64,000 nt of DNA from NCBI GenBank assembly GCA_038134595.1, contig JAYPVM010000001.1:382035-446034 (forward strand), read 5' to 3'. Origin of the DNA: Pseudomonadota bacterium. Lineage in GTDB: Bacteria > Bdellovibrionota_C > UBA2361 > OMII01. Made by a program: the position numbers and the translations under genes. This document shows, one piece after another, positions 19,580 to 37,201 of this stretch. Under the pieces are notes generated by a model. It did no database searches and had not been told where the DNA came from. It saw nothing but the letters and a program-made list of their open reading frames with translations. Within the stretch, counting starts at the first letter, position 1, and each line of letters opens with the position of its first letter.

Positions 19580-20893
19580 TTATTCGGATGTTTTGAGACG
19601 CAGTATGATTCGGGCGAAAGCATTCGGACGAAAATCATCAGCAGAGCGAAGAACATCAAAGAGAGCATCTAGATCTTTCCCATGTTGAGAGCGGATATCT
19701 GGATTAGTTGCCAGGATAGACTGCAGCCCCATGCCGAGCTGTTCTGCGACTTCAAATGTCGGAAAGGGAGTAGCTTCGCCAAAGGCTAGGAGCCCTGAAA
19801 AGAGCTGGCGCGTTGTTTGTGGCGAATAATTAAGTGCTTGCACCATCGGACGAACGGATTCTTGTAGAAACTGTTGAAGCTTTAAGAGAGAGTCTACTGC
19901 GCCCTTATCTGAAAATGACTGATGAATCCCTTCCGTTAATTTGGCTAGTGTTCTTGCCTTCTCTGGATCTACTTTAGAGAGGCCGGCTTGAAGAAGTAGT
20001 AGGGGAGCAAGATTAAGTTTAAGGCTTCCTGGCTCTTTTGCATACGAGCGCTCCTTCCACTGGTTAAGCTTTAAGGGATGATGACAGGAGTAGCAATCAA
20101 AGATGCTTAGCTCAGGAAGCATCCCACGCCGAACAAAGGAAGGGTCTTGTAATTGTGTTGCCAAAGCGATGCTGTGTTCAAGTTGTCCGGTTAGCCACGT
20201 TTTAGCTGGGATGTATGCGCCTTTTCTTTTTTTGTAGTCTTCATCAACAACCCAGTGCTTAGGTTCCAAAATGCTGTAGGTATCAAGCTCGAATGTTAAA
20301 CGCGGATGTCCGGCGCCGTAGAGCTTGTGTGTTACTTGTTGTTTCGTATCGCCGTAGTGGCACGACAAGCAGAGTTCTGCGCGCGCATTGAGAGAATAGG
20401 TATCATGGAGTCCGTTTTGAAGGTTCTGTTCATGTGTAGCCCCACGCTCTGCATGGCTTGTTAGCCAATTTTGACTGGCTCCGTGACACGATTCACATGA
20501 TACTCCATCTTCTACTGAGTATTTCTCTCCTTGAAGCGAGGTGTCTGCTACATACGTTGCATGACACCGTAAGCATAGCGGCTCTTTTGTCGCATCTGAT
20601 ATCCCAAGGTGTTTTGCCATCTTCTTTGCATCAGAAGTCATGAGATTTGTATATGCCTTGGAGTGCTTATCGTGTGAGGCCCACGTCGTGTATTCATTTT
20701 GCAGCACATTCGTGCTCTTTCTAGCCTTTGTCGCACCGTGGCAATTTGATGATGAGCACGAACCAGTGCCTTCGTATCGAGGAAGGGCGTACGCAGAAGC
20801 TACGGTGTATCCGACCAAGAAAGCAGTGGAGATCGCACAGAAAGAATAAAGCCTTGTTACGTGTGCGATTAGTTGAAATGTTTTGGTCTTCAT
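19580..20893 (-). CDS. Periplasmic multiheme cytochrome c (c554-like), 4 CxxCH plus 1 CX4CH
   Basis: Signal peptide; CSSSNCH, CLRCH, CESCH, CLSCH, CYSCHH; GVSCESCHG and YGAGHPRL. Confidence 0.9.
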   Translation of the reverse strand: MKTKTFQLIAHVTRLYSFCAISTAFLVGYTVASAYALPRYEGTGSCSSSNCHGATKARKSTNVLQNEYTTWASHDKHSKAYTNLMTSDAKKMAKHLGISDATKEPLCLRCHATYVADTSLQGEKYSVEDGVSCESCHGASQNWLTSHAERGATHEQNLQNGLHDTYSLNARAELCLSCHYGDTKQQVTHKLYGAGHPRLTFELDTYSILEPKHWVVDEDYKKRKGAYIPAKTWLTGQLEHSIALATQLQDPSFVRRGMLPELSIFDCYSCHHPLKLNQWKERSYAKEPGSLKLNLAPLLLLQAGLSKVDPEKARTLAKLTEGIHQSFSDKGAVDSLLKLQQFLQESVRPMVQALNYSPQTTRQLFSGLLAFGEATPFPTFEVAEQLGMGLQSILATNPDIRSQHGKDLDALFDVLRSADDFRPNAFARIILRLKTSE

Positions 20894-21082
20894 TACATCG
20901 TAAAGGTTGTGTGTAATCTATCTAACGAGTTGATGATAGCGTTGTAGTTAGATGCATGGAACACTAGCTTTATATGCGAAGAAGTTTTTAATTGCCAAGA
21001 GAAGAATCTTGAATACAATCGAAGTGTTCTCAAGTTTAGGGGGATACGGAAGTCTCCTTAGAAACACACTGTTCTATTAAGT

Positions 21083-23425
21083 ATGGGCGAAATTCTAGAA
21101 ATTGCAATTATCGGCGCAGGGCCCGGTGGAATTGGCGCCGCTACGAATGCGGCTCGCCATGGAATTAGTCACGTACTTATCGAAAAAGCAGAAGTAGCAA
21201 ATACTATCTATCAGTATCAGCTTAAGAAATACGTCATGGCGGAGCCGCAACATCTTCCGCTACGAGCAGAGTGCCGATTCGAGGCTGGCTCAAGAGAGAC
21301 TATTCTTGAGCAATTCGGAGAGGACCTCGAACGCCATGGAGTCAATGTCGTCAAAGGAGAGGTTACAGCTATTGAGAGAGAGGGCGAGCTCTATCGAATC
21401 TCGTACGGAGACGCATCGTGTTTAGCTAGACATATTGTAATGGCAATAGGAGTACAAGGCTCTCCTCGAAAGCTTGGAGTTTCAGGAGACGCTCTGCCGC
21501 ATGTTTTCTACACGCTTTCAGATCCAGAGGCGCATACTGGAAAAGATATCGTTGTAGTTGGAGCAGGGGATGCCGCTATTGAGAATGCCTTGGCGTTGCT
21601 TGAACGCAATACCGTAACGCTTATAAACAGAGGTGCTGAATTTGCACGAGCAAAAGATGCCAATAGTAGAAAGATACTGCAGGCGATCTCATCTGGAGAG
21701 ATGCGGTGCTTCTACAATACGACCATAGAGAGTGTGAAAAGTGATACGATCGTTTTAAATACTCCCGAAGGAGAGGTTTCAGTGCCGTGCAATCATATCA
21801 TTGCGCGGTTGGGATGTGTGCCTCCGAGAAAATTCCTGGAAGGGGTCGGAATCTCTTTTCCTAGTGCAGATATCAACTCGGTTCCCGTAGTCTCTGAGCG
21901 ATATGAATCAAATGTGCCGGGGATACACATCATTGGAGCGCTGATCGGATATCCCCTAATCAAGCAGGCGATTAATCAAGGGTATGAAGTTGTCGAGCAT
22001 ATACGGGGTGCACCGGTTCTTCCTGCAGATCAGCCGCTTGTAGAGGAGCGCTTTAGTCATATCGAAAACGGGTATGAAAATTATTTTCTGCGACTTCAAG
22101 AGCTTTTGCCTCACTTTCAAGAGCTAAGCTCGCCGCAGATTCGAGAGCTTGTTATCGATTCTTCGGTACATGAGATGAGACCCGTTACGACGGTATTTGA
22201 GAAAAACGATTATACCGACACGTTTTGGAGTGTTTTATCAGGAAGTGTGCATGTTGTTCTCGATGGTGGGGAGCGTACCGTAACGTTATCAGCTGGCGAT
22301 GTTTTTGGAGAGATGGGGCTTCTCTCCGGTAGACGTCGAATGGCGACTATAAAAACCGGTCTAAGTGGTGCAGTGTTGCTTGAAACTCCTCGAAAACAGA
22401 TCGTAAAGCTTTTAGCCTCCGTGGAGCCTTTTAAGGTTTATATCGATAGGCTCTTTATGGAGCGAGCTTTAGGCGCATCAGTTTTTGCAGGCGCTTCACA
22501 CGAGTTTTTAAGTGACTTGGTATCTAAAGCTACGCTTAAAACCTTCAAGAAGGGCGAGATGCTTTTTGCAGAGGGAGACGAAGGGCATGAGATGTTTTTT
22601 ATTCGCAAAGGCTCTATCAAAATCTCCCGGAGAAATTCAAAAAAAGTCGATATCGCACAAACATATGTACCTGCTGGCCATATCATTGGTGAGATGGCTG
22701 TGTTGCAGGACAACGGAATAAGAAGCGCATCCGCTACTGCCGCTGTGCCCGTTGAAGTAGTAGTGATTAAAAAAAGCGACTTGGATCAATTGCAAGAGCG
22801 GTTTCCCGAGGCGTTACACGCTATCGAGCAGGTGGCAGAGGATCGTGCCATTGAGAACACGCTCGCTGATTGGAGTGAGGAGTCTGCCTCACTTCTAGAT
22901 TTTATGGTCCAAGAGGGACTTACTGATGCCGAGAGTGTTTTACTCATAGATTCTAATCTGTGCATTGGTTGTGATAACTGCGAGAGTGCGTGTGCGGCGA
23001 CTCACGGTGGATATTCAAGGCTTGATCGCAAAGAAGGCAAGAGTTTTGCTTCGTTGCAGCTTCCGATAGCGTGCCGACACTGTGAAAATCCGTTGTGTAT
23101 GCTTGATTGTCCACCTGATGCGCTTACACGGCAGGAGGATGGTGAGGTAGTGATTCGTGATTCCTGTATCGGATGTGGAAACTGTGTTACCAACTGTCCG
23201 TATGGTGTGATTAAACTTGTCCACGATGCTCCAGAGAGTCGATGGTCGCTCTTTGATCTCTTTAAGAAAAAGCAAAAAGATACAGGCCCCGCAAAGGCGG
23301 CGAAGTGTGATATGTGTCACGACCACAAGGGAGGCCCAGCCTGCGTACGCGCGTGCCCAACTGGAGCCGCGATTCGGGTGAATGCCGAAAAGTTAATTCA
23401 GATTGCGGGGACAAAGCATGAATAG
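21083..23425 (+). CDS. TrxB/FNR-like flavo-oxidoreductase fused to two cNMP-binding domains and a 4x[4Fe-4S] ferredoxin
   Basis: IIGAGPGG (FAD), VVGAGDAAIE (NAD(P)H), FGEMGLL..RRMAT and IGEMAVL..RSASA (cNMP), CIGCDNCESAC / CRHC..PLC...CP / CIGCGNC...CP / CDMC..PACVRACP. Confidence 0.9.
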   Translation: MGEILEIAIIGAGPGGIGAATNAARHGISHVLIEKAEVANTIYQYQLKKYVMAEPQHLPLRAECRFEAGSRETILEQFGEDLERHGVNVVKGEVTAIEREGELYRISYGDASCLARHIVMAIGVQGSPRKLGVSGDALPHVFYTLSDPEAHTGKDIVVVGAGDAAIENALALLERNTVTLINRGAEFARAKDANSRKILQAISSGEMRCFYNTTIESVKSDTIVLNTPEGEVSVPCNHIIARLGCVPPRKFLEGVGISFPSADINSVPVVSERYESNVPGIHIIGALIGYPLIKQAINQGYEVVEHIRGAPVLPADQPLVEERFSHIENGYENYFLRLQELLPHFQELSSPQIRELVIDSSVHEMRPVTTVFEKNDYTDTFWSVLSGSVHVVLDGGERTVTLSAGDVFGEMGLLSGRRRMATIKTGLSGAVLLETPRKQIVKLLASVEPFKVYIDRLFMERALGASVFAGASHEFLSDLVSKATLKTFKKGEMLFAEGDEGHEMFFIRKGSIKISRRNSKKVDIAQTYVPAGHIIGEMAVLQDNGIRSASATAAVPVEVVVIKKSDLDQLQERFPEALHAIEQVAEDRAIENTLADWSEESASLLDFMVQEGLTDAESVLLIDSNLCIGCDNCESACAATHGGYSRLDRKEGKSFASLQLPIACRHCENPLCMLDCPPDALTRQEDGEVVIRDSCIGCGNCVTNCPYGVIKLVHDAPESRWSLFDLFKKKQKDTGPAKAAKCDMCHDHKGGPACVRACPTGAAIRVNAEKLIQIAGTKHE

Positions 23426-23440
23426 AGCTGGAGTACACGC

Positions 23441-24259
23441 ATGACTACAGAGACTTTTGTCAGCTATAAAAGCTTTCGGTGGCTTTGGATTGCCTGTACT
23501 GCGTTACTTGTAAGTGGCTACATCTACTGGCTTGATGATCCTATCGGTGGAAGAAATGGAGGAACGCTTGTTGGATACGCACTGGGTGTCATCGCTACGA
23601 TTGCTGTTGTGTGGCTCATGGCGTACGGACTACGGAAGCGAAGTTATCATTCATCGCTCGGTACTGTAGAGGGTTGGCTCTCTGCACATGTGTGGATAGG
23701 GCTCGGTGTTTTAGTGCTCGTTCCTCTTCATGCTGGATTTAGCTTTGGAATCAATGTTCATACACTTGCATACGGCTGTATGGTCATAACAATTCTCTCC
23801 GGTATCTGGGGGGTGGCTAACTATGCCACGCTCACAACAAAGATAACCTCACATCACGGGGGCGCTAAAGAGAGCGCTGTTGTTGAGCAGATGCACGCCA
23901 TATCAGAGGAGCTTGACCGCCTCTGTGCAGGAAAAAGTGCTGAGTTTTTAGATATCTTCAATGCATACAATTTTTCATTTCATCCAAGCCTCCGTGCCCT
24001 TCTAAAGCGAAACTCCATTCCAGCCATCGACTCTAAGCGAGTACAACAGCAGATGCAGGGGGTGTCAGAGCAAGAGAGTGCAGATGCCCTAACAATGATT
24101 GGACTCCTTGATCAGAGAATCGATCTTGCAAGGGGGCTCCTTGAACAGGCTCGCATAAAAGCGCTTCTCAAAGTGTGGTTGTATATTCATGTTCCGTGTT
24201 CGGTTGCACTGTGTGTAACCCTTGCAATTCATATTCTTTCAGTATTTTATTTTTGGTAG
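23441..24259 (+). CDS. Inner-membrane protein with conserved-looking His residues (possible heme-b carrier)
   Basis: About 5 TMs; WLSAHVWIG, PLHAGF, NVHTL, WLYIHVP, AIHIL. Confidence 0.75.
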   Translation: MTTETFVSYKSFRWLWIACTALLVSGYIYWLDDPIGGRNGGTLVGYALGVIATIAVVWLMAYGLRKRSYHSSLGTVEGWLSAHVWIGLGVLVLVPLHAGFSFGINVHTLAYGCMVITILSGIWGVANYATLTTKITSHHGGAKESAVVEQMHAISEELDRLCAGKSAEFLDIFNAYNFSFHPSLRALLKRNSIPAIDSKRVQQQMQGVSEQESADALTMIGLLDQRIDLARGLLEQARIKALLKVWLYIHVPCSVALCVTLAIHILSVFYFW

Positions 24260-24267: not shown

Positions 24268-25920
24268 GTGTTTCGTTTAATATATGAAAAGAAGCGAGAA
24301 GATGGAGGCGTTGAACGTCTCGTTCAAGAATTTCCTCATGATGAGATAACCATCGGAAGAGGGGGTGAATCTACAGTTGTAATTCCGGGGCGACGCCTAG
24401 CTTTAGTGCATGCCCGCATGGTGTGGGATGGACAGGCGCTTGTGGTGGTGGATGCCGGCTCTGTTGCTGGTGTGAGAGCCGAGGGAAGGCGCATCGCGCG
24501 AGAGAATCTTGCAAGCGGAGATACTATAGTATTAGGAGATGTATCGATCCGATGTGAATATGCAAACGGCTCTGTAGATCTCATCTGTCACATCGATGAG
24601 GAAGAAAAGATTCAAGTGCGGGCAAAAGACACGCTTGCAGGCTTGCGCGTAGAGACATACCTGCCCAGTATGCGAGCCTTGTGCCTCGTTGTCGGACTAG
24701 CAGCACTTATAGGATGTGGACTATACCCCTTTCTAGACGGAGATTTTAGTGCCTGGAGTAGCGGGCCAATCGCAAACCCACACAAATTAATTGAAGCCGA
24801 TTGCCAGAAGTGTCATACAAGCCCCTTTGAGCAGGTGCCAGATTCAAGCTGTTTGGCGTGTCACTCAATGACAGAGCACGGAAGCTCCAGCATGAATCAA
24901 GTAAGAGTGGGGCACCCCGATACTGAAAAGAGGTGTGCGCAGTGTCACATGGATCACAACGGCACATCGGGACTTATCGAAGAAGATGCTCGCCAATGCA
25001 CCACATGCCACGCCAACCTCAAACAGCACGCAAAAGAATCTACATTTCTCGATGTCAGTTCGTTTGCCAAGCACCCGCAGTTTCATATCGCTCTTCTAGA
25101 CAGTGCTGACCGCACAATTCGCGTTCCAATCGATAGTACAGACGCGATAGACCCAGGAACGATACAGCTAAATCACGCAGTTCATCTTGAAGGATTTATC
25201 AGAACTCGCACAGGAGAGAAGAAATTGGCGTGCAACTCATGTCATGAGTTGTCAGGAGACTTTAAGACCATTAAGCCGATATCATTTGATAACCACTGTA
25301 GAGAGTGCCACAGTTTAAGCTTTGATGACAGAGATCCCGAACAAGAAGTGCCTCACGGCGATGCTGAGGTGATATTCCCATTTCTCTACACCCATTACAC
25401 TACACAGACGTTAGAGAGAGAAAACAAGCCTGCAACCAAAACCTCTACAATGGATGTTAGTCGTAGGATACCGGGGAGCGAACCCGTTGCTCTCAGTGTA
25501 AAAGGCTCTCCGCAGGAGCTAGCTAGAGAAGCCGAAAGACAGCTATTTACCAAAACAGGATGCGCGCTCTGTCACGGTATAGATGAGAAACCGGTAGAAG
25601 AGCGAAAGGAAGACAATGCTCACTACCGAATTAAACCTTCAAACATCAAAACCGTGTGGTTGCCCCATGCCCGATTTAGTCACGGTGCGCACGAAGAGTA
25701 TACCTGTGAGTCGTGCCATGCAGGTGTGCAGAAATCAACGAACAGCGGGGATGTGCTCCTTCCAAAGGTGGGGATATGCCAAAACTGCCACGCGGATAAT
25801 CACAGAAAAGGTTTTGTATCGTCAGATTGCGTGACGTGTCATTCGCATCACGATCAGCAGGCTATGGCGCCTGAAAAGAAGCTTGATATTAGGACATACA
25901 TTCGGTCGTTGATACGGTGA
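24268..25920 (+). CDS. FHA-domain / TM / decaheme cytochrome c fusion
   Basis: ITIGRG...HAR..D.GS..G...L..GDTI.LG (FHA-like), one TM, then 10 CxxCH motifs; GTG start 24268. Confidence 0.88.
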   Translation: MFRLIYEKKREDGGVERLVQEFPHDEITIGRGGESTVVIPGRRLALVHARMVWDGQALVVVDAGSVAGVRAEGRRIARENLASGDTIVLGDVSIRCEYANGSVDLICHIDEEEKIQVRAKDTLAGLRVETYLPSMRALCLVVGLAALIGCGLYPFLDGDFSAWSSGPIANPHKLIEADCQKCHTSPFEQVPDSSCLACHSMTEHGSSSMNQVRVGHPDTEKRCAQCHMDHNGTSGLIEEDARQCTTCHANLKQHAKESTFLDVSSFAKHPQFHIALLDSADRTIRVPIDSTDAIDPGTIQLNHAVHLEGFIRTRTGEKKLACNSCHELSGDFKTIKPISFDNHCRECHSLSFDDRDPEQEVPHGDAEVIFPFLYTHYTTQTLERENKPATKTSTMDVSRRIPGSEPVALSVKGSPQELAREAERQLFTKTGCALCHGIDEKPVEERKEDNAHYRIKPSNIKTVWLPHARFSHGAHEEYTCESCHAGVQKSTNSGDVLLPKVGICQNCHADNHRKGFVSSDCVTCHSHHDQQAMAPEKKLDIRTYIRSLIR

Positions 25921-26076
25921 GTAGTATTAGGGGGAGCGCCTGAAGAAATTCACACGCGTTACCGACGCTTGCAATAGGCAAGCACCAAACATCCATACTG
26001 TTTACCGTACCTACACAGAAGCCTGCAATGCACCTGACGGCCCGCTGCCGAGTGAAAGATGTCTTTTCGCCGCACA

Positions 26077-26370
26077 CCACGCGGCGTCATGTAATGGGGT
26101 CCCCTAGGTACGATCAATCGTCCCTTCCCTGCCATTAATCAGTAATCGAAAGTCGACAGGAGTAGTTCTGCGCAACGAGAAAAAAGTAGTTTAGTCGTGA
26201 CTGGTACGATATATCGCCACGCTGCGTCATGTGATGGGGTACCCTAGGTACGATCAATCGTTTCTTCCGTGCCATTACTCAGCAACCGAAAGTTGATAGG
26301 AGAAGTTCTGCGCAACGAGAAAAAAGTAGTTTAGTCGTGACTGGTACGATATATCCGGTACGATATATCC
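26077..26370 (+). repeat. Tandem 140-bp repeat (copies start 26077 and 26217) ending in duplicated GGTACGATATATCC
   Basis: Two aligned copies with scattered substitutions. Confidence 0.92.
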
Positions 26371-26517
26371 TCGAGTGCTAGCTTAAGAACAGGGAAGCGG
26401 CTGACTAATATTATGTTCTCCAATTGCCTCCGTGTTCACCAAAAAGATGATTGCCGATGATAATGCTACCGTGTATAGTCTCTATTAAAATTTATTAAGA
26501 GCGAAGGATGGAGTTTA

Positions 26518-26733
26518 ATGGTTCAGAAATTAGGATTGATTTTAGTTTTAGCTATTGCTTTCTCGGTAACTGGGTGTTCAAGCAAAGCGGGGCCGTTTGT
26601 GACTAGTATCAGTAGCGATGGTGAGGGCGGTATAGTTGTAGAGAAGTGTATGGTGCGCTTAGACCGCATGATCAACACGGTCGAGAGTGCTGATTGTACA
26701 AATACAAACATAGTATTGCGCAAGGTGCGCTGA
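26518..26733 (+). CDS. Small lipoprotein
   Basis: Lipobox VTG|C, AGGATGGAG RBS, two further Cys. Confidence 0.75.
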   Translation: MVQKLGLILVLAIAFSVTGCSSKAGPFVTSISSDGEGGIVVEKCMVRLDRMINTVESADCTNTNIVLRKVR

Positions 26734-26738
26734 TGTGG

Positions 26739-26808
26739 GGATATATCGTACCGGATATGTCGTACCAGTCACGACTAAACTACTTTTTTCTCGTTGCGCG
26801 GAACTTCT
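26739..26808 (-). repeat. 70-bp inverted copy of 26301-26370
   Basis: Reverse complement matches 26301-26370 at all but two positions. Confidence 0.92.
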
Positions 26809-26886
26809 AACTAACACTGGTGCCTGCCAGCAGTTTTTCACACTAGTTTTTCAAATGCGCTTTAGAAAAGTTTTTGGAATAAACCC

Positions 26887-27996
26887 TTATTTATCGCGAT
26901 CTGGCAGTCTGTAACTGGTGCTACGTCCGCCTCCGGAATTCTGAATGAAAATCTCACGCTCCTTTAAATCCTGAATATCCCGCAAGGCTGTATCATTCGA
27001 ACATTTGGCCAGCTTGGCGTATTTGGAGGTGCTCATAAAACCCTCAAAATCATCTTCAAGCATACGGTTAATGATCAAGCGCTGGCGATCATTTACAGGC
27101 TTTTGGTTGATTACATGCCAGAGCTGTGCTTTGAACAGCACATTACCAAGCGTATCTTCCGCATTGCTGATGGCTCGGCCAAGGCAATCTAAGAACCAGG
27201 ACAGCCAGTCTGTAATATTAGGTGTAGAGCGTTGTTGCGCTTCAAGCTGATGATAATACTGCTTGCGCTCTGCCTCAATTTGCGATGACAGACTATAAAA
27301 ACGATCTGGTGTGCCATCGGCACGAGCAAGCACCATATCACCAATAGCTCTGGCGATACGTCCATTGCCATCTTCAAACGCATGGATTGTTACAAACCAT
27401 AAGTGTGCAATACCTGCTTTGATGACAGGGTCGGTAGTAGCTTCGGTCGCCAGCCACGCAAGAAACGCTTTCATTTCCTTTTCTAAGCGCGCAGCAGTAG
27501 GAGCCTCAAAATGCACCTTTTCTTTACCGATAGGGCCAGAAACAACCTGCATAGGACCAGCCTCTACTGTTCGCCACCCTCCAACGGTGATTTTGTGCAG
27601 GCCGCTACGCCCCGTTGGAAACAAGGCGGCATGCCAGTCAAAAAGCCGGTCTTTGGTTAGTGGTTTGGAATACTGTTGCGTGGCATCGAGCATCATTTCA
27701 ACGATGCCTTCAACATCGCGGCTTGCAGGGACAAGCCCGGCAATGTCAATTCCAAGCCTGCGGGCAATGGATGAACGCACCTCTTCAGGGTTAAGATTCT
27801 CACCTTCGATTGCCGATGATTTAACAACATCATTGGTAAGTGTCCCGAGAGTTGCTTCACGCTTTAGCTCAAAACCAAGGCTCTCCATGCGCCCCAGTAA
27901 ACGGCCCTGGCGATGGCGTATATCAGCAAGCTTGGATGCAAGGGATTCTGCATCCCATGTAAAGTTTGGCCAGTTTTGATGTTCATGAATCCACAT
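26887..27996 (-). CDS. Fic family protein with N-terminal DUF4172 and C-terminal HTH
   Basis: MWIHE..NWPNFTWD, SSAIEGE, HAFEDGNGRIAR, SNDTALRDIQDL..GGRSTSY. Confidence 0.93.
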   Translation of the reverse strand: MWIHEHQNWPNFTWDAESLASKLADIRHRQGRLLGRMESLGFELKREATLGTLTNDVVKSSAIEGENLNPEEVRSSIARRLGIDIAGLVPASRDVEGIVEMMLDATQQYSKPLTKDRLFDWHAALFPTGRSGLHKITVGGWRTVEAGPMQVVSGPIGKEKVHFEAPTAARLEKEMKAFLAWLATEATTDPVIKAGIAHLWFVTIHAFEDGNGRIARAIGDMVLARADGTPDRFYSLSSQIEAERKQYYHQLEAQQRSTPNITDWLSWFLDCLGRAISNAEDTLGNVLFKAQLWHVINQKPVNDRQRLIINRMLEDDFEGFMSTSKYAKLAKCSNDTALRDIQDLKEREIFIQNSGGGRSTSYRLPDRDK

Positions 27997-28000
27997 AGTA

Positions 28001-28735: not shown

Positions 28736-29343
28736 GTAAATACCTGTCTTAGATTTCCACCGAAGGGCATCTCGGATCGTTCGTATTCTCGCCCTCGTCC
28801 ATACAAGAATGATTGCATGCTCGTAGTGTTTTGAAGCCAGAATTCGATAGTCTTGTTTGGCCGAGGGAAGATGTCAACTCGGTAACTACCGACGAATTGT
28901 TCTGTGGGATCAATACCTGCTGTAACAAGTTCAATCGGACCAAAGGCACCTTTGAAGTTTGTGACGGCTTCCCATTCGTCAAAGGGCAGTCCTTTATTTT
29001 TATTGTAAAAATACTGTCGCGCGCGGTCTACATCCCAAGCATTAGACATGTTTTGTGACTGAAGCGAGCAGTGTTTGAAGATACGCACAGGCGACCCAGC
29101 GCCAAGTGCCCAGTCTGTGAACATACGAATTGAGTCAGCCCATCCTTTCAGTACAGAGGGTGGCTGACATTGAGCGAAAGTTTGCTTTGGCGCGGAGCGG
29201 TGAGTCAGAGTTTCTTCGGAGGCAAGGCTCTTAAACCCATCTTCAGAGGGTGCAATCTTTTCGGGTGGCACCATTGAAGGAGCCTCGATGGGGTCTTGAT
29301 AGTCTTCCTGAGACCCATTTATTGGGGGGATTCTAGTAGGCAT
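28708..29343 (-). CDS. Hypothetical protein with polymorphic/RHS-toxin-like C-terminal domain
   Basis: Low-complexity N-terminus; C-terminal 'TEQFVGSYRVDI...NTTSMQSFLYG...GGNLRQVFTWKEP' resembles RHS C-terminal tips from recall; ATG 29343 preferred. Confidence 0.55.
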   Translation of the reverse strand: MPTRIPPINGSQEDYQDPIEAPSMVPPEKIAPSEDGFKSLASEETLTHRSAPKQTFAQCQPPSVLKGWADSIRMFTDWALGAGSPVRIFKHCSLQSQNMSNAWDVDRARQYFYNKNKGLPFDEWEAVTNFKGAFGPIELVTAGIDPTEQFVGSYRVDIFPRPNKTIEFWLQNTTSMQSFLYGRGREYERSEMPFGGNLRQVFTWKEPAQVS

Positions 29344-29492
29344 AAGACATCTCAAACTTGAAACGTAGAGGTTGTACTTGAGGTTATCGTTTATAGGCTT
29401 TGAGAAGTTTCGTGCCGTTTCAAAAGTAATATGCGGGATGGACGCACGGGTTACTTGATGCCATACTTTCTTGAGTAAATTAGCATGTATAC

Positions 29493-29682
29493 CTAGCAGG
29501 GTGGTGAAAAATGATTTCCTGTTGCACATTTCGATAGTTCGACTGCAACTTCGTTGGAGCCGCCGAAAAAATCCTTGAACGTATCTCAGTGGATACGCCT
29601 CCGGTTTTTTCGTTGTCTCCGCCTCGTTTCGTCAAAACTCTCAAAATGTTCACGACGGAACCTTTTTTCACCACCCTGCTAG
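29493..29682. mobile_element. MITE, 182 bp, 15-bp perfect TIRs, CTAG flanks
   Basis: CTAG|CAGGGTGGTGAAAAA (29497-29511) ... TTTTTCACCACCCTG (29664-29678)|CTAG. Confidence 0.85.
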
Positions 29683-29727
29683 TGGCAGAGAGCTGGATAT
29701 GCACATACAATGAGGTTTTAATTTCCG

Positions 29728-31650
29728 ATGATTTCTAGGGCGCAACCTTCGAGGAAGAGCTACAAGGCATTAGTAGTTTGTGCACTGGCTCTTCTCACTA
29801 CGGCTACCTCCTGCGGTGGTGGCGGTGGCTCAGGAGGCAGTGCCTCTGGAGGGCTTGCCTCGGCTAACAGAGGTTGTACTGGTAGTTGCCCGAATCAATC
29901 GCTCTCCTCATCTGAAGTCCGAGTGATTCTTCGGCAAGCTCTGACTGCCGCGCGTGCGCTCAATACTGCTGGAACATTTGCTGTGCTCGATAGAGTTGGA
30001 AATGTCTTAGCGCTCTATCAGATGCAAGGCGCGCAAAGCTCGAGCATTGTAAATGGTCAAATCGGTGCCGTAGGCGGGCTTGAGGGAGTAGCTGTACCGG
30101 CAACGCTTGCGGCGATATCAAAGGCTGGTACAGGTGCTTATCTTAGTTCTCAAGGTAATGCGTTCTCAACTCGAACCGCGAGTCAAATCGTTCAAGAGCA
30201 TTTTCTTCCAGGGCAGAGTTTTCAACCGGGAGGTCCACTCTTTGGGGTTCAGTTCTCTCAGCTTGTGTGTAGCGATGTTACCCTTGAAGGCAATGCAATG
30301 CTGGGGCCTCGACCGCTTCCTTTAGGTTTATCTGCTGATCCCGGTGGATTTCCTCTCTATAAAGATGGAGACCTCGTAGGGGGAATTGGAGTCGAGATAG
30401 ACGGGCTCTATACTCTTGATAGAGACGTAAGTAATTTTGATGAGGCGCCGGAGGAGTTTGTTGCGCTAGCGGCAAGTCGAGGTTTTGAAGCTCCGGCAGA
30501 GAGGGTGGGCGACAACGTAGTCGTTGTTGGACGCTCACTTCGATTCTCTGATATCGGCTACTCTGAGATTCCATCCTATGAAACTCTCGATGATATCTCT
30601 GATAACGAGCTAGTGGCGCTCGCAGGATTTACCGATGGAACGATAAAAGATGGGGCAGTTTTTGGCACTGCTGAATCCGGAATTGCCAATACGGTGCGAA
30701 GAGATATTCCGGTATCAGTTCTTACTGGAAGATTTCCTACGAAGGCAGGTCGTGCTCTTTCTGGAGGAATTGAGCTCTCTGTATCAGATGTAGATGCTCT
30801 TTTGGATTCAGCGCTGATGACAGCAAATCGGATGAGAGCTGCGATTAGAACTCCCCGCGATTCTTCAGCTAGAGTTTCCATCTTTGTAGTTGATAACAGA
30901 GGTGAGGTCTTAGGTTTTGTTCGCTCGCAGGATGCTCCACTCTTTGGTATCGATGTGGCGCTTCAAAAAGCACGAATGGCGGCTTTCTTAAGCTCCACAG
31001 ATGCACACGATATCTTGGTGCGCGCATCGGGTGGATTTAATAAAAACTATGCGGAGGCATTCGAGCAGCTTCTTGGTAGAAGGCTAGATGGGTCGCTAGC
31101 TGTGTCTGCGCGTGCTGTTGGAACTATCGCTCGACCGTTTTTTCCAGACGGTATCGATGGAAATCAGGAAGGTGCATTCTCACTTCCATATCCGGGTAGT
31201 ACAACCGGTGCTTCATGGAGCATCTTTAATACAGGACTCCAACTCGATTTAATTACAGCCGCCTTTGTAGCGCCGGTTGTAGCTCCAGGTAGTGTTCCAC
31301 ACCGATGTACCTCAGATGCAAGCTTTGGAGATAGGTTACGAAACGGTATTCAGATATTTGCAGGAGGCGTGCCTCTTTATAGAAACGGTGTGCTAGTTGG
31401 AGCAATAGGTGTAAGTGGCGATGGGATCGATCACGATGATATGGTATCGTTTTACGGCGCAAGCAGACGGGGCTTAGATTTTGCCGGTCATACCGAGATA
31501 GGGGATGCAGAGTATGGATTTAACGCGCCGCGAGAATTACGAATCGATAATGTAACGATGCCAACACCAGAAACACGTCTTCGATATGTGCAGTGTCCAG
31601 AGGGTGGCTTTATTCAAGGAACAGAGCAGAATATCTGTGGAGATGGTTAG
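29728..31650 (+). CDS. Lipoprotein with tandem GlcG/HbpS-like heme-binding domains
   Basis: ATS|CGGGGGSGG; two copies of '(A/F)V(L/V)D..G.VL', 'A..KA', 'GG.PLY..G.LVG.IGV.(S)GD'. Confidence 0.85.
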   Translation: MISRAQPSRKSYKALVVCALALLTTATSCGGGGGSGGSASGGLASANRGCTGSCPNQSLSSSEVRVILRQALTAARALNTAGTFAVLDRVGNVLALYQMQGAQSSSIVNGQIGAVGGLEGVAVPATLAAISKAGTGAYLSSQGNAFSTRTASQIVQEHFLPGQSFQPGGPLFGVQFSQLVCSDVTLEGNAMLGPRPLPLGLSADPGGFPLYKDGDLVGGIGVEIDGLYTLDRDVSNFDEAPEEFVALAASRGFEAPAERVGDNVVVVGRSLRFSDIGYSEIPSYETLDDISDNELVALAGFTDGTIKDGAVFGTAESGIANTVRRDIPVSVLTGRFPTKAGRALSGGIELSVSDVDALLDSALMTANRMRAAIRTPRDSSARVSIFVVDNRGEVLGFVRSQDAPLFGIDVALQKARMAAFLSSTDAHDILVRASGGFNKNYAEAFEQLLGRRLDGSLAVSARAVGTIARPFFPDGIDGNQEGAFSLPYPGSTTGASWSIFNTGLQLDLITAAFVAPVVAPGSVPHRCTSDASFGDRLRNGIQIFAGGVPLYRNGVLVGAIGVSGDGIDHDDMVSFYGASRRGLDFAGHTEIGDAEYGFNAPRELRIDNVTMPTPETRLRYVQCPEGGFIQGTEQNICGDG

Positions 31651-31652: not shown

Positions 31653-33467
31653 GTGAATAATAAGAGCGCTCAGCACGGTGACAGCGATAAAGGTTACTGG
31701 AGTTGTTTGCGCGATTTTCTCCTGCGAAACGCAGTTTGCTTTTTAGCGGTTGTTCCTTTGACTCTCCAAGCTGAAGAGAGAGGCGTGCAAGACGAAGTGC
31801 ATCGTGAGCAATCTCCAGAGGATATACCCCGTAGATTTACCGATAAAGATACTCCTGATTTTCCTGCCTACATCTATGAGTCGATACCACCTGTTGCAAA
31901 TTCTGCCTCGGATTTTCTTGCACTTCCGGATAGGTGGCGGATGTTTTATGCAGGTAAATGGTATGACCCGTACAATCAAAGTGTATTAAAGGGTGATGTA
32001 CCAATCTTTGGATCGCCGGGGCACGAGTGGTTTACAGAGCTTTCGATTCTATCGGACTCGCTCTATGAGTCTCGCAGGATTCCAGTGCCGGTGGGATTTG
32101 CTTCTACGAAGAGACCTGATAGCAATAACGTATTTGGTGACGGCGACCAGTGGATGTTTGTGCAGAATGTTATCACCTCGCTGTCGTTAATTCGGGGAAA
32201 CACAGCCTTTAAGCCACCTGATTTTGAACTCCGCATAGCGCCAGTCTTTAATTACAACTATGTATCGGCAGATGAGAATGGACTTCTAAAAGCTGACCCG
32301 TCATTTGGTTCAGTTCGAAGTGATAGCTTCATAGGTTTTCAGGAACTGTTTGCAGATATTCACATAGCTAATCTCTCTGACCGCTATGACTTTGTATCAT
32401 CAAGAATCGGTATTCAGCAGTTTAATGCTGATTTTAGGGGCTTCTTGTTTAACGATAATGAGCCTGGCGTAAGGATCTTTGGAAACTACGATAATAATAA
32501 ATTACAGTTTAACCTCGCCGCATTCTCAAGGCTCGACAAAGATGTGAACTCCGGCATCAACACGATGTTTACCGATCGTCACGAAGATGTGTTTGTCGCA
32601 AACCTCTTTAGGCAAGATATGCTTACCCTCGGGCATACGATGCTCTTTAGCGTAGTACACCGGGCAGATACAGCAGGAAATTCTGGATACAGATACGATA
32701 GAAACAACTTTCAAGCGCGCCCGACAGCTATAGGAGATCAGCGCTTTCGAAATATCTACAGCACGTATTTTGGTATTGGAGGAGACGGACACTTCGGACG
32801 GATCAACACGACCTCACAGTTCTACTATGTGATGGGTTCCGAGAGCCATAATCCGATTGCAAATCGTAGGGTCTCTATCGGAGCTGCGATGTTTGCCACA
32901 GAAGCTTCCGTGGATGTTGATTGGGTTCGGTTTAGAACATCCTTCATGTGGGCCTCCGGCGACCGAGATCCGTATGACAGTAGGGCAACGGGATTCGATG
33001 CTATCTTTGATAATCCTAATTTTGCAGGAGGCGACCTCTCGTTTTGGCAACGACAAGGCATTCCGTTTATTGGGGGCGGTGCTACCAATCTTGTTAATAG
33101 AAATAGTTTGCTCCCGAATCTGCGTCCCACAAAAGAGCTTGGGCAATCAAACTTTGTGAATCCAGGTCTAAGGCTCTATAACGTTGGAATGGATATTGAG
33201 GTCCTTCCTGAATTAAAGCTAATAAATAACGCAACGTTCCTAGAGTTTGATCAGCCAGCGGTTTTAAAAACGCAACGGCAAGACGGTTCAATGGGCAGAG
33301 AGCTTGGAGTGGATCTCTCAACTGGTTTCTTGTATCGACCGTTTCTAAATAATAACGTTCAACTACGGGCGGGAGTTGGTGTGTTTTTGCCAGCGCATGG
33401 GTACGACAATTTATTTGGCGACCGTGTTAATTACGATGCGTTTACTAATATTATACTGCAGTATTGA
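31653..33467 (+). CDS. Predicted outer-membrane beta-barrel (porin / alginate-export-like)
   Basis: Signal peptide (LQA|EE), alternating amphipathic strands, C-terminal aromatic residue (ILQY); start uncertain. Confidence 0.75.
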   Translation: MNNKSAQHGDSDKGYWSCLRDFLLRNAVCFLAVVPLTLQAEERGVQDEVHREQSPEDIPRRFTDKDTPDFPAYIYESIPPVANSASDFLALPDRWRMFYAGKWYDPYNQSVLKGDVPIFGSPGHEWFTELSILSDSLYESRRIPVPVGFASTKRPDSNNVFGDGDQWMFVQNVITSLSLIRGNTAFKPPDFELRIAPVFNYNYVSADENGLLKADPSFGSVRSDSFIGFQELFADIHIANLSDRYDFVSSRIGIQQFNADFRGFLFNDNEPGVRIFGNYDNNKLQFNLAAFSRLDKDVNSGINTMFTDRHEDVFVANLFRQDMLTLGHTMLFSVVHRADTAGNSGYRYDRNNFQARPTAIGDQRFRNIYSTYFGIGGDGHFGRINTTSQFYYVMGSESHNPIANRRVSIGAAMFATEASVDVDWVRFRTSFMWASGDRDPYDSRATGFDAIFDNPNFAGGDLSFWQRQGIPFIGGGATNLVNRNSLLPNLRPTKELGQSNFVNPGLRLYNVGMDIEVLPELKLINNATFLEFDQPAVLKTQRQDGSMGRELGVDLSTGFLYRPFLNNNVQLRAGVGVFLPAHGYDNLFGDRVNYDAFTNIILQY

Positions 33468-36400
33468 TGGTGAATTTTGTGGCGAGGCAAGGATTGAGCA
33501 GGTGTAGGAAAAAAGCAGGCGAAACGCCGATAGTACGCACGCTACTTGCTGTTCTGGTCTGTATGTGTAGTCGAGTCGCCATTGCAGAAGATCCCTACAC
33601 CGATGTATTAGAGCCAGGGATAACACAAGCCGAACAAGATGAAACAAGTCTAGGCTGTATTGACTGTCATACGAAAACGGATGCTCCGACTATGCACACT
33701 AATCCAGCTGTGCATATCGGGTGCGCCCAGTGTCACGGAGGTGATGCTAGTGTGCGAGCAGAAGGGGTTTCCAAAGAGGATCCCGTGTATGAAGAGCTAA
33801 AGCGCGCAGCACACGTTCTACCAGAAAACCCTGAAAACTGGTTGTCATCAGCAAATCCCAAGCACTCATATACCAATTTGATGAAGGAGCCACGTGAATT
33901 CGTGCGCTTTATCAACCCCGGTGATTTACGTGTCGCTCCGCAAGTATGTGGCGGGTGTCACAGTGAGATCGTTCCTGCTGTTCGAAAGAGCTTGATGACC
34001 ACATCAGCGATGCTGTGGGGAGGCGCGTCGTATAATAACGGACTTCTTCCGTATAAGCGGTATGTCTTAGGTGAAGGGTATACTATAGACGGAGAGCCTG
34101 CCAGTGTCGCACACGATAGCTCAAGAGAGATGACACCAGAGATGCAGGCGCGAGGCGTATTAGAGAAGCTTCTTCCTATGCCTACATGGGAGGTGTATCA
34201 GCCAGCAGATATCTTTAGGATCTTTGAGCGGGGTGGATTCTTCATTCGCTCGCAGTTTGCTGAAACGGGGCTGCCCAATCCCTTTGAAGAATCTGGTAAG
34301 CCTGATGTTCGAGCATCGAATCGGGGCCCAGGAACAGGTGGCCGCATCGCAGTGCCACTCCTTAATCTTCATAAAACACGTCTTAACGACCCTCATTTAA
34401 GCTTCTTGGGAACCAATGACCATCCGGGAGACTATCGAAGTAGTGGCTGTACGGCGTGCCATGCAGTGTATGCCAATGATAGAGATCCACTGCACTCAGG
34501 ACCGTATGCAAAATATGGGCACGAAGGAAAGAGTATTACAAGCGACCCAACGATCCCTAAAGACGAAGAGGGGCACCCTCTAAAGCACGTGTTTACCCGA
34601 GCCATTCCAACCAGTCAGTGTATGGTGTGTCACATGCATCAGCCTAATATGTTTCTTAATACGTATTTAGGGTACACGATGTGGGATTATGAATCAGACG
34701 CTCCAAGCATGTGGCCTAAGAAACAGAAATATCCCAGTGATGAAGAGGAGCATGCCTCCCTTATGCACAATCCAGAGGAAGCTGCTGTAAGGGGTAAGTG
34801 GACAGATATTGATTTCTTAAAGCGTGTCAGCGATCTCAATCCATCTCTTAATACGACACAGTTTGCAGATTACCACGGACACGGATGGAATTTTCGAGCT
34901 GTCTTCAAGCGAGATAGAAAGGGACGACTACTCGATAAAAACGACAAAGTGGTGGATTTTAACGATCCAAAGAAGTTTAAGAAGGCAGTTCACTTACGAG
35001 ATATTCATGTTGATTTTGGCTTGCAATGTATCGACTGTCATTTTAGCCAAGACGTTCATGGAGATGGTAATATCTACGGCGAAGTTGCCCAGGCAGTTGA
35101 GATAGGGTGTGAGGATTGTCACGGTACGATTCAAAGTAAAGCAACGCTAACAACCTCAGGCCCAGCAGCACAAGAGGGCGGGCGAGACCTATCCTTAAAG
35201 CGTACCCCGTGGGGCGAGCGGCAGTTTGTGTGGCAGGGAGATAAACTTATACAACGCTCACTGGTTACTGAAGGGTTAGAGTGGACAGTAAAGCAGGTGC
35301 GAGATTCCGTTGATCCTGCCAGTAAACATTACAACCCGCGCTCTGCAAAAGCTAAACTCGTTACAAGGATTAAAGATGGAACAACCTCGTACGGGATAGC
35401 GAAGGTAGAGGAGATCGATACCAAAAAGAAAAATTCTAATCTGGCACACCCCAACGAAGACATGTCGTGCTTTGCCTGCCACAGTTCGTGGACTACAGCG
35501 TGTGGCGGATGTCACTTGCCAATAAAGGCTAATAGAAAGACGACTACAAACCACTACGAAGGCAAAGAAACACGCAACTGGGCGTCGTACAATCCGCAAG
35601 TTGCACGCGACGCTATGTATCAACTAGGACGCCACGGACCAGCTAAGAATGGCAAGATCGTGCCGATTCGTTCCTCCAGCGCGCTTATACTAAGCTCCGA
35701 AGACAGTAATCGGCAGAAGATTTACGTACAACAACCCCCAACCTCTGCTAGCGGACACAGTTCACAGGCTTTTGCTCCGCATTTTCCTCATACAGTGCGA
35801 ACTCGGGAGACGAAGGGTTGTAAGGATTGCCACGTCTCTGAAGCAAACGATAATAACGCCATAATGGCGCAGCTGTTACTGCTTGGAACCAACTACGTAA
35901 ACTTTATGGGCTACCACACGTGGCTTGCAACAGCGGAGGCTGGTTTAGAGGCGGTGCAAGTCACAGAGTGGGACGAGCCACAGGCTGTAATCGGAAGTTA
36001 TCTGCATAAATACGCGTATCCTGACTACTACAAACAACACCAGGGGCGAAAACTCGAACTAGAAACTAGCCACAGACATCACGGAGCGGGGGGGAGCACG
36101 CAAGCCATTCAGCTTCGTGGCGAGTATCTCTATACTGCGGCTGGTAGCGGAGGTTTTAGAGTATACGATGTGGCAAATATCGCGAATAAGGGGTTCTCAG
36201 AGCGGATCGTGACGAGCCCAGTTTCTCCCCTTGGACAAAACACGCATGTTGCAACCACTGATGCAACCGACTTAGCGCTTCCAACAACGATGCCAGTAGC
36301 TCCGTTTAAGAAACAGTTGTCTGAGAATTTGGAGAGCCCGCTTCATGCCATCTACCACTATGCGTTTATTACCGATCGAAAAGAAGGTTTAATCGTAGTG

Positions 36401-37201
36401 AATATCGACACGCTTCAGGACGGTGAGCCTCGAAATAATTTTCTAAAGCGGGCTGCTACGTGGAATCCAGATGGAGTCTTAACAGGAGCAAGAACGATAA
36501 CGCTTGCCGGCGCCCGCGCGTTTGTCGGTACAGAGACAGAAGTTGTTGTCGTGTCGCTTCAAGATCCGCTTGCCCCTGTTATTGAGACACGTTGGAAGGC
36601 AGATAAGCCAACGGGGATAGAGGTTCAATTCCGGTATGCGTTTATGACAGATGCACAAGGGTTTCATGTCATAGATATCACTGACACTGCAAATCCACGG
36701 GAATTAGAGAGCGGATTTATACCGCTTAGTGATGCCAGAAATGTATATGTGGCAAGAACATATGCGTATGTGGCAGGGGGCAAGGATGGCGTTGTAATCA
36801 TCGATATCGAGAAGCCCCACAAGCCTTTCTTGTACCAGAGATTTACAGGCGATGGAGCAATTACAGATTGCTATGATGTAAAGGTCGCATCTACCAACGC
36901 TAGCCTTATCGGCTATGTCGCTAACGGACGAGATGGGCTCGTCGTACTACAACTTACCGACCCCGACACAGTTCCAGGATTCTACGGCTTTTCTCCCCCA
37001 GTAAAGCCCCGTATCATTGCAACGAAGCACACTGCAGGCTCTGCTGTAGCACTCTCCAAACCCCTTGATCGCGATCGTGCTGTAGATGAGACGGGGAATC
37101 AGGTAAGCGTTCTCGGGCGTCTGGGTAGCCGTCCGTTTACCTTAGAAGAGATGAGGCGTATGTATCTGACCCGTGAGGGCAAGCTTTGGACGGTAGAGTA
37201 G
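33464..37201 (+). CDS. Large decaheme cytochrome c with C-terminal LVIVD-repeat beta-propeller
   Basis: Signal peptide (AIA|E); 10 CxxCH; repeats GEYLYTA..GFRVYDV, YAFITD..GLIVVNI, YAYVAGG..GVVIIDI, GLVVLQL. Confidence 0.9.
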   Translation: MMVNFVARQGLSRCRKKAGETPIVRTLLAVLVCMCSRVAIAEDPYTDVLEPGITQAEQDETSLGCIDCHTKTDAPTMHTNPAVHIGCAQCHGGDASVRAEGVSKEDPVYEELKRAAHVLPENPENWLSSANPKHSYTNLMKEPREFVRFINPGDLRVAPQVCGGCHSEIVPAVRKSLMTTSAMLWGGASYNNGLLPYKRYVLGEGYTIDGEPASVAHDSSREMTPEMQARGVLEKLLPMPTWEVYQPADIFRIFERGGFFIRSQFAETGLPNPFEESGKPDVRASNRGPGTGGRIAVPLLNLHKTRLNDPHLSFLGTNDHPGDYRSSGCTACHAVYANDRDPLHSGPYAKYGHEGKSITSDPTIPKDEEGHPLKHVFTRAIPTSQCMVCHMHQPNMFLNTYLGYTMWDYESDAPSMWPKKQKYPSDEEEHASLMHNPEEAAVRGKWTDIDFLKRVSDLNPSLNTTQFADYHGHGWNFRAVFKRDRKGRLLDKNDKVVDFNDPKKFKKAVHLRDIHVDFGLQCIDCHFSQDVHGDGNIYGEVAQAVEIGCEDCHGTIQSKATLTTSGPAAQEGGRDLSLKRTPWGERQFVWQGDKLIQRSLVTEGLEWTVKQVRDSVDPASKHYNPRSAKAKLVTRIKDGTTSYGIAKVEEIDTKKKNSNLAHPNEDMSCFACHSSWTTACGGCHLPIKANRKTTTNHYEGKETRNWASYNPQVARDAMYQLGRHGPAKNGKIVPIRSSSALILSSEDSNRQKIYVQQPPTSASGHSSQAFAPHFPHTVRTRETKGCKDCHVSEANDNNAIMAQLLLLGTNYVNFMGYHTWLATAEAGLEAVQVTEWDEPQAVIGSYLHKYAYPDYYKQHQGRKLELETSHRHHGAGGSTQAIQLRGEYLYTAAGSGGFRVYDVANIANKGFSERIVTSPVSPLGQNTHVATTDATDLALPTTMPVAPFKKQLSENLESPLHAIYHYAFITDRKEGLIVVNIDTLQDGEPRNNFLKRAATWNPDGVLTGARTITLAGARAFVGTETEVVVVSLQDPLAPVIETRWKADKPTGIEVQFRYAFMTDAQGFHVIDITDTANPRELESGFIPLSDARNVYVARTYAYVAGGKDGVVIIDIEKPHKPFLYQRFTGDGAITDCYDVKVASTNASLIGYVANGRDGLVVLQLTDPDTVPGFYGFSPPVKPRIIATKHTAGSAVALSKPLDRDRAVDETGNQVSVLGRLGSRPFTLEEMRRMYLTREGKLWTVE

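Follow-up and report, generated by a model that had tools for sequence, protein, structure and literature searches.

We analysed a 64,000-nucleotide stretch of DNA (the window) from a Pseudomonadota bacterium placed in Bdellovibrionota_C (assembly GCA_038134595.1, contig JAYPVM010000001.1, positions 382,035 to 446,034), and in it a set of seven genes for which an earlier note, made from the letters alone, had proposed a trans-envelope electron conduit gated by cyclic nucleotides (cNMPs) and phosphorylation. All seven open reading frames (ORFs) are found where the note had put them (Table 1). Its estimate of ~25 c-type haems agrees with the motif count (5 + 10 + 10 = 25, one of them CX4CH), with five motifs in the pentahaem cytochrome, ten in the FHA-cytochrome, and ten in the decahaem-propeller. 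The locus is made up of three units rather than one operon: the pentahaem gene lies on the minus strand, divergent from the others, and a 3.8-kb insertion of foreign DNA parts the inner from the outer half of the cluster. Likely starts are 24268 (a GTG after a ribosome-binding-like AGGA), 31653, and 33467 (in a TGATG overlap with the stop codon of the barrel gene). Promoter and terminator counts were no higher than chance, and a search of Rfam gave no match. The sequences of the encoded proteins give good support to a chain that would start at NADPH and reach into the periplasm.

Table 1. Features of the locus, in window coordinates
Feature	Position	Strand	Sequence characteristics
Pentahaem cytochrome, c554-like, periplasmic; PtdD homologue	19580..20893	-	4 CxxCH + 1 CX4CH, 5 further invariant His
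Flavoprotein, cytoplasmic: TrxR/YpdA-fold FAD/NADP(H) + tandem cNMP + 4x[4Fe-4S]	21083..23425	+	C-terminal half homologous to PtdE
Inner-membrane di-haem-b protein, ferric-reductase/NOX-like	23441..24259	+	W79-H83-H97, S120-GxxG, W246-H250-H264; homologue of PtdF and of PCC3/PCC4 inner-membrane proteins
FHA-cytochrome: degenerate FHA + one transmembrane helix + periplasmic decahaem; membrane-anchored wire	24268..25920	+	~35 amino acids (aa) per haem
Lineage-specific insertion, outside the system	25921..29727		Repeats around a 71-aa lipoprotein-like ORF, Fic/DUF4172 gene, two orphan ORFs, 190-nucleotide repeated element
Tandem DUF336 (GlcG/HbpS) lipoprotein	29728..31650	+	No conserved His; domain 2 keeps EfgA pocket residues K414, S563, D570, R399
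Probable outer-membrane beta-barrel, alginate-export-like	31653..33467	+	Many conserved Arg and Asp, C-terminal aromatic residue
Decahaem-propeller, secreted; probable terminal enzyme	33467..37201	+	~73 aa per haem, seven-bladed LVIVD propeller, 17 conserved His beyond motifs

Cytoplasmic input and membrane carriers

The 780-aa oxidoreductase gave family matches to a Pyr_redox domain, two cNMP domains, and a Fer4 domain, as the earlier note had read it, and its 16 invariant cysteines correspond to four [4Fe-4S] clusters. The solved structures nearest to the flavin domain are YpdA/Bdr and the TrxR-type ferredoxin–NADP reductases, and the sequence has no CxxC at the usual place. A GAGDAA motif is accompanied by R183 (48/49 homologues), R189 (46/49), and K191 (47/49), a combination that we take to be NADP-type; the NAD(P)H input proposed before is kept and can be given more exactly as NADP-type.

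In cNMP domains the phosphate-binding cassette is defined by a Gly-Glu pair and a following Arg. Both cassettes of the flavoprotein keep these residues: G409 and E410 in 49/49 homologues and R419 in 48/49 for the first, and G536 in 48/49, E537 in 46/49, and R547 in 49/49 for the second. The best solved matches to these domains are the tandem domains of PKG and PKA. The source genome (G000) has a single match to the class III cyclase family (Guanylate_cyc), in a CHASE2 protein that is 56% identical to a CHASE2 cyclase encoded 2 kb downstream of the decahaem gene in a relative (G010). It has Lys and Thr at the base-specifying positions, presumably making cyclic AMP (cAMP) its product. The conservation of both cassettes and the linkage of a CHASE2 cyclase lend support to the cNMP gating put forward in the note, and control of the chain by cNMP is likely on sequence grounds. 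Across 82 loci (L011-L092), the CHASE2 protein cluster occurs in 9 and FecR in 11. The CHASE2 adenylate-cyclase-like gene of the source genome lies at C3:215875-223226 with a gene for a 1160-aa FecR-TPR protein and one for a 654-aa secreted protein; the orthologous trio comes after the decahaem gene in G010.

The second proposed input, phosphorylation, is not supported. The GR, SXXH, and NG motifs of FHA domains are described as crucial for phosphothreonine binding (PMC3162421). Among 51 sequences of the FHA-cytochrome, GR is present in all 51, the Ser of SXXH in 6, and the Asn of NG in 5, and the copy in the source genome has Ala at both of the latter positions. Phospho-gating through this domain was rejected because two of its three phosphothreonine motifs are lost, and the state of the binding site argues against a kinase link. 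A kinase link may exist all the same, as two kinases score above the cut-off in the source genome and a kinase cluster occurs in 7 loci.

In the 272-aa membrane protein, which the note had called His-rich, four histidines (H83, H97, H250, and H264) are invariant and fall in two WX3HX13H motifs, together with SGxxG. Two such motifs plus SGXXG are given as the signature of PCC3/PCC4 membrane proteins, where they were tied to FRE/NOX (He et al. 2017, PMC5566968). A weak cytochrome b561 match was seen in 41 of 52 family members, and a profile search against PDB sequences gave nothing significant (best E value 0.36). Downstream of it, the predicted fusion of an FHA domain, a transmembrane helix, and a decahaem is borne out, with the FHA part degenerate; the periplasmic part has nine further conserved His and resembles GSU1996, HmcA, and chain A of 6r2q, the last of which we take to be MtrA. 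The periplasmic pentahaem is likewise as described, its motif pattern being kept in 51/51 aligned sequences, and its best PDB match is cytochrome c554 (E 1e-8). From their sequences, the anchored decahaem and the pentahaem look like pure carriers.

The outer module

The lipoprotein matches the HbpS-like/DUF336 family. Both of the tandem GlcG/HbpS domains that the note had recognised were found, and a crude regular expression detected a lipobox in 40 of 58 homologues. Haem-binding DUF336 proteins such as HbpS and PduOC use a conserved His as haem ligand. Among the 58 homologues no His is conserved at 90%, and haem binding by the lipoprotein through His was rejected. Domain 2 keeps residues matching K57, S114, D121, and R42 of EfgA, which are also general family residues; the EfgA pocket is described in PMC8153426.

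The 604-aa protein encoded next is a probable outer-membrane beta-barrel. It has a signal peptide and contains 14 conserved Arg and 14 conserved Asp, and the last residue is Tyr or Phe in at least 56 of 69 homologues. Its neighbours by language-model features are named alginate export, and PF13372 is assigned to 21% of one Atlas cluster; the PF13372 model itself does not match the protein from the source genome and matches 9 of 69 members weakly (best E 4e-4). A profile search against PDB sequences found no match, and a single-sequence AlphaFold run gave no usable fold (predicted local distance difference test, pLDDT, 29.7). Some homologues of the barrel carry SPOR, SH3, AMIN, HEAT, or fn3 domains.

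The decahaem-propeller was predicted as a single rigid body (pLDDT 85.7; predicted template-modelling score, pTM, 0.90), and the model contains the LVIVD propeller that the note had named, with seven blades. The propeller matched 7bid (Z 20.8, root-mean-square deviation 2.3, 269 residues aligned); the fold search with the full model returned propellers only, the haem domain being barely probed by it, and a profile search against PDB sequences gave nothing significant (best E 0.18). This is the most conserved subunit, with 58% mean identity to distant homologues vs 27-45% for the others and 27% for the wire. It has 17 extra conserved His and 5 conserved Met, a lipobox occurs in 3 of 76 homologues, and the lipobox scan found no lipid anchor on either soluble cytochrome. 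A segment at about residues 253-308 is conserved yet disordered in the monomer model. The high identity relative to the wire, the surplus of His and Met, the confident rigid-body model, and the near absence of a lipobox make the protein enzyme-like; such features would be less expected of a wire than of an enzyme.

Distribution and kinship

A search with the decahaem gave at least 8000 candidate homologues. On GTDB contigs, 596 of the 600 matches listed were relatives, and we fetched the best 80 loci, which are the top matches and not a sample. Linkage was counted in the 54 of these with a full 10-kb upstream flank, the 26 short loci being dropped. The barrel gene is present in 54, the lipoprotein in 52, the FHA-cytochrome in 50, the membrane protein and the oxidoreductase in 49 each, and the pentahaem in 40; 37 loci have all seven. 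One locus that seemingly had no inner half has it a few kb further on. The 80 loci include Alpha- and Gammaproteobacteria, Thermoanaerobaculia, Myxococcales, Nitrospirae, Binatia, and Bdellovibrionota, the closest named homologues carry the labels Bdellovibrionota or Oligoflexia, and all seven genes occur in Sphingobium herbicidovorans MH (locus tags B6S01_RS18410-18455). The seven genes are, as had been supposed, a conserved set that is widespread, reaching several phyla.

Frequencies came from even draws of genomes. In the class of the gammaproteobacterium G041 (300 scored genomes including the centre; G262 was left unscored), 11 have a full decahaem and 14 a strong membrane-protein match, both counts including G082, and all 11 fall within the 14. 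In the class of the alphaproteobacterium G042, the decahaem occurs in 14 of 251 (one a contig-edge piece) and the membrane protein in 16, again with all 14 inside the 16. Without the centre genomes, the decahaem frequencies are 10/299 and 13/250. Pooled over the 551 proteobacterial genomes, 25 of 25 with a decahaem-propeller also have the membrane subunit. Among 41 relatives, including the source genome, the decahaem is found in 29, leaving aside a match of 53 residues in G012; 28 of the 29 have the membrane protein, and 12 relatives have neither. No test statistic is given for this co-occurrence because kin are not independent. The source genome itself (2.6 Mb, 94% complete) has the CcmF- and CcmC-like genes that the note had advised looking for, as well as ACIII-like and haem-copper-oxidase-like genes; no protein with more than five haem motifs was found in it outside the cluster.

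That no described architecture fits, as the earlier note had held, is true of Mtr, Nrf, Nap, and Hmc by family cut-offs, but the inner half is homologous to the published PCC4/Ptd clusters. These clusters, ptdABCDEFG (bioRxiv 10.1101/2023.11.21.568154) and PCC4 subgroup II (He et al. 2017, PMC5566968), are prediction-only and are described as having a porin, cytochromes with 4, 5, and 10 haems, an FAD oxidoreductase, a cNMP–Fe-S protein, and a ferric-reductase-like protein. We tested the homology on a Ptd-like cluster (L102 in genome G228) picked by its fit to the preprint's description. Shared with it are the membrane protein with two WX3HX13H motifs and SGXXG (E 1e-20), the cNMP–Fe-S protein (PtdE), whose gene comes immediately upstream of that for the membrane protein (E 3e-49), and a PtdD-type c554-like cytochrome (hhalign 99%, E 3.5e-18) that has five haems here and four in L102; a membrane-anchored decahaem (a weak match in L102), an FAD oxidoreductase, and a porin–multihaem pair add to the likeness. 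The differences begin with the haem counts, 5/10/10 here vs 4/5/10. In our system the TrxR-fold flavin domain is fused to the cNMP–Fe-S protein, whereas PtdC is separate, and the PtdC-like ORF of L102 was missed by that profile. The DUF336 lipoprotein and the FHA domain are extra here, and a decahaem-propeller stands instead of PtdA, a pentahaem with a beta-sandwich (hhalign 44% over 40 columns only). Between the barrel and the PtdB-like porin no kinship was detected with a single-sequence template (hhalign 0.5%), but they may be remotely related. Read from its genes, the system works like PCC4/Ptd, yet by its outer genes it is no member. In the literature available to us we found no published description of the outer module (alginate-export-like barrel, DUF336 lipoprotein, and decahaem-propeller) or of the full seven-gene set, although the supplements of the ptd preprint and of He et al. 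2017 may list variants with it; a cluster with a ten-haem forkhead-associated protein is listed without function by Hoover et al. 2023 (PMC10734462). At G228:C1:340000-366000, the complete Ptd/PCC4-II-like cluster L102 and an equally complete copy of the seven-gene system (L111) are arranged tail to tail.

Five genomes of the even draws (G153, G459, G561, G312, and G251) have a strong membrane match without the decahaem. Two of them are hybrids (G153, L114; G459, L121), in which the inner module and pentahaem of the seven-gene system, the latter as two genes in G153, are joined to PtdA- and PtdB-like genes (36% and 28-29%) standing in place of the lipoprotein, barrel, and decahaem. A quick tree of 68 membrane proteins places the G153 and G459 sequences within the decahaem-linked ones (a branch with 99 in the Shimodaira–Hasegawa-like approximate likelihood ratio test, SH-aLRT). 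G561 has no outer module within 34 kb, the contig of G312 breaks off within the barrel gene, and in G251 only the membrane gene is present. Because the same inner half is joined to PtdA-PtdB in two genomes, outer modules can be exchanged, and one inner module would serve several of them. PtdA-like proteins are weakly similar to ExtKL/MccSep (E 3e-9 to 2e-5).

Of the weak membrane matches, we examined 18 of 41, chosen for long contigs: 15 are PCC3-type, two are seven-haem pairs, and one is Ptd. PCC3 (He et al. 2017; Hoover et al. 2023, PMC10734462) is alike in a related inner-membrane protein and in the first haems of the proximal cytochrome; it differs in having wires of 15-69 haems (two, with medians of 21 and 34 haems) and a larger porin, which are not here. 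PCC3 membrane proteins also form a separate branch in the quick tree (100 SH-aLRT), and no cNMP, FHA, DUF336, or propeller matches were seen in the PCC3-type loci examined. These loci (L095-L098, L100, L101, L103-L110, and L112) are gammaproteobacterial, and in 12 of the 15 an Fe-S and TrxR-fold flavoprotein homologous to our input domain (E 1e-35 to 1e-68) lies beside the membrane gene; most of the PCC3-linked flavoproteins have an NADP-type motif. The flavoprotein in 12 of 15 loci hints at a connection of PCC3 to NAD(P)H, a link not found stated in the available portions of He et al. 2017 or Hoover et al. 2023. In a two-gene relative (L093:10155-11710 and L099:8593-10178), the membrane protein is paired with a seven-haem cytochrome, with no flavoprotein match nearby.

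The Geobacter cluster extHIJKLMNOPQS is described as encoding the porin ExtI, the periplasmic polysulfide reductase ExtKL/MccSep, ExtM, and ExtN, and offers a precedent for a porin gene beside a periplasmic multihaem reductase (PMC5877670, bioRxiv 10.1101/2025.11.18.688581). The logic of our system is similar, with a porin, a putative multihaem enzyme in the periplasm, a cytochrome b in the membrane, and an Fe-S protein, and the decahaem aligns with the ExtM model in three collinear stretches. However, its score is 91 bits vs a cut-off of 800, there is no rhodanese, Rieske protein, or selenoprotein among the seven, and the accounts of ext we drew on describe no NADPH/cNMP input. With MtrCAB, MtoAB, and OmbB-OmaB-OmcB the locus shares a barrel beside multihaem cytochromes, one of them a wire-like decahaem, but it reaches no NCBIfam cut-off (the best DmsE score is 22 bits vs 192), has no surface lipoprotein cytochrome, and has a cytoplasmic flavoprotein input rather than a CymA-type quinol oxidase. 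FRE, NOX, and MsrPQ, as we understand their mechanism, pass electrons outward from NAD(P)H through a flavin and two b haems, as we propose for our system; the latter has cNMP control and 25 c haems besides, as well as four Fe-S clusters and an outer-membrane module. The Uet cluster of Tenderiales, as far as it is described, has different components and was rejected as a match.

Proposed function, rivals, and neighbouring genes

Our preferred reading, to which we give a probability of roughly 0.45, is that cAMP gates an export of electrons from NADPH to a reductase that sits in the periplasm beside a pore. In the order of carriers and the outward direction that we infer, NADPH would reduce FAD in the TrxR-fold domain, and cAMP on the two intervening cNMP domains would gate transfer to the four [4Fe-4S] clusters. 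Two b haems would carry the electrons over the inner membrane, as in ferric reductases and NOX, and the membrane-anchored decahaem and the pentahaem would ferry them through the periplasm to the decahaem-propeller, a putative periplasmic terminal reductase at the inner mouth of its dedicated barrel. The barrel would act as a channel admitting a small soluble oxidant, and the DUF336 lipoprotein may bind or sense a small molecule there. The role would be non-respiratory: acquisition, detoxification, or signalling. The sequences themselves establish the cofactor motifs, signal peptides, linkage, and swapping of modules. Besides the enzyme-like profile, the replacement of the decahaem-propeller and its barrel by PtdA and PtdB in G153 and G459, the weak similarity of PtdA-like proteins to a periplasmic polysulfide reductase with a porin gene as neighbour, and the ACIII-like and haem-copper-oxidase-like genes of the source genome speak for this reading. 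As to the substrate, analogy with ext would point to sulfur or selenium species, and a chelated metal is a further candidate; none of these is better than a long shot.

Several observations weigh against this reading. MtrC is also haem-sparse and is nonetheless a surface protein, and the decahaem may be secreted without a lipid anchor. Its surplus His may be structural, and the ExtM score is far below the cut-off. In the source genome there are three other cNMP proteins (four in all), and CHASE2 proteins occur in 36 of the 41 relatives whether or not the cluster is present, so the cyclase link is one of proximity; both families being common in this order, genome-level co-occurrence with either is uninformative. 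Three of the best 150 barrel representatives (P0166, P0176, and P0235) carry a fused tetrahaem cytochrome c3 domain at the N terminus, and such a fusion is no less compatible with a wire than with a channel. Finally, the flavoprotein type is shared with PCC3 clusters, for which inward flow has been proposed (PMC5566968).

The fusions, 3 in 150, also bear on the foremost rival, a true porin–cytochrome conduit in which the barrel sleeves a haem chain (formed by the last portion of the anchored decahaem or by some of the large one) and NADPH electrons reach minerals, humics, electrodes, or other cells. A barrel adjoining the decahaem in 54 of 54 full loci, an anchored decahaem that is wire-like in its resemblance to GSU1996, HmcA, and 6r2q chain A, and the use of the same inner module by PCC3, a wire-type cluster, are all what a conduit would have, and the disordered conserved segment of the large decahaem may bind a partner. 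We nevertheless consider it unlikely: there is no lipoprotein cytochrome, the large decahaem is compact, the barrel is nearer to alginate-export porins than to MtrB (by language-model features and the weak Pfam matches in 9/69), and the hosts come largely, as we understand, from aerobic heterotroph groups.

Electrons could instead flow inward, with the decahaem oxidising a periplasmic or external donor and passing electrons to NADP+ or the quinone pool, as proposed for PCC4. TrxR-type ferredoxin–NADP reductases are, to our understanding, reversible. He et al. 2017 (PMC5566968) proposed a model in which PCC3 and PCC4 of Fe(II) oxidisers conduct electrons from a donor to quinone, and Hoover et al. 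2023 (PMC10734462) list an FHA-decahaem cluster for 27 of the 87 iron-oxidising Gallionellaceae. Reduction of NADP+ from c-type haems would, however, be uphill, with no coupling device in the cluster, and the ACIII-like genes of the source genome would serve ordinary quinone exchange. The FRE/NOX/MsrQ family, moreover, exports electrons, and we hold inward flow to be improbable.

Slightly less probable again is a NOX-like burst, in which cAMP would set NADPH electrons to reducing O2 at the envelope; the superoxide or H2O2 formed would be used in signalling, in competition, in predation, or to attack polymers. The NADPH source, the NOX-type haem-b subunit, and the second-messenger gating do parallel regulated NOX enzymes, and the neighbouring genes are signalling modules, but NOX needs no c-type chain, and 25 haems and a specific pore would be excessive for O2. 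Least probable is a redox-sensing or storage device whose haems serve as capacitor or antenna while the cNMP and FHA domains signal rather than gate bulk flux: the FHA fold, tandem cNMP domains, DUF336 sensor fold, and FecR, kinase, and cyclase neighbours would suit it, but none of the seven proteins is fused to a DNA-binding, kinase, or cyclase output domain, the flavoprotein keeps its full NADP site, and the FHA motifs are degenerate.

Gated export to a periplasmic reductase could be part of something broader, though we regard the extension as doubtful: a second-messenger electron valve in ~1/20 of the sampled alpha- and gammaproteobacterial species and in other phyla. An outside signal would act through a CHASE2 adenylate cyclase, cAMP would open a quinone-independent NADPH path over both membranes, and swappable outer modules (decahaem-propeller, PtdAB, or PCC3 wires) would set the acceptor. 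If true, this would be a general, overlooked extracellular redox route in aerobes, and PCC3 and PCC4 would be recast as NAD(P)H-coupled and not quinone-coupled. If the preferred reading itself is right, many ordinary aerobic bacteria could switch on NADPH electron export to the envelope by cAMP. This would bear on which organisms reduce metals, sulfur species, or oxygen extracellularly in oxic soils and waters, where such reactions are mostly ascribed to anaerobic specialists. Through the module swaps, three prediction-only families (the seven-gene system, PCC4/Ptd, and PCC3) are tied to one shared cytoplasmic input, and an allosteric cNMP-gated flavin-to-Fe-S gate and a new decahaem enzyme family would, if true, each be of biochemical interest.

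The distance from the membrane gene to the decahaem gene is 10.0 kb in the source genome vs 6.3 kb in G001, G010, G013, and G016, and the insertion is missing in G001, G016, and G022. It contains the Fic/DUF4172 protein gene at 26887-28005 (minus strand). Directly after the decahaem gene, at 37186-38613 (plus strand), lies a GH28 polygalacturonase-like gene with a twin-arginine-like signal, which was not seen at that place in G001 or G010. Both the Fic insertion and the GH28 gene were rejected as parts of the system. Within the insertion, two 139-nucleotide direct repeats and a 70-nucleotide inverted repeat (26077-26808) flank the 71-aa lipoprotein-like ORF (26518-26733), and akin repeats occur at C1:162762-163058 of the source genome. 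At 29493-29682 is a 190-nucleotide element resembling a miniature inverted-repeat transposable element, with 47-nucleotide imperfect terminal inverted repeats and eight other near-full copies in the genome (87-98% identity). On the other side of the cluster, at 16465-18109 (minus strand), a DUF6502 gene is found upstream of a Na+/H+ antiporter, together with the gene of a carboxypeptidase-regulatory-like lipoprotein.

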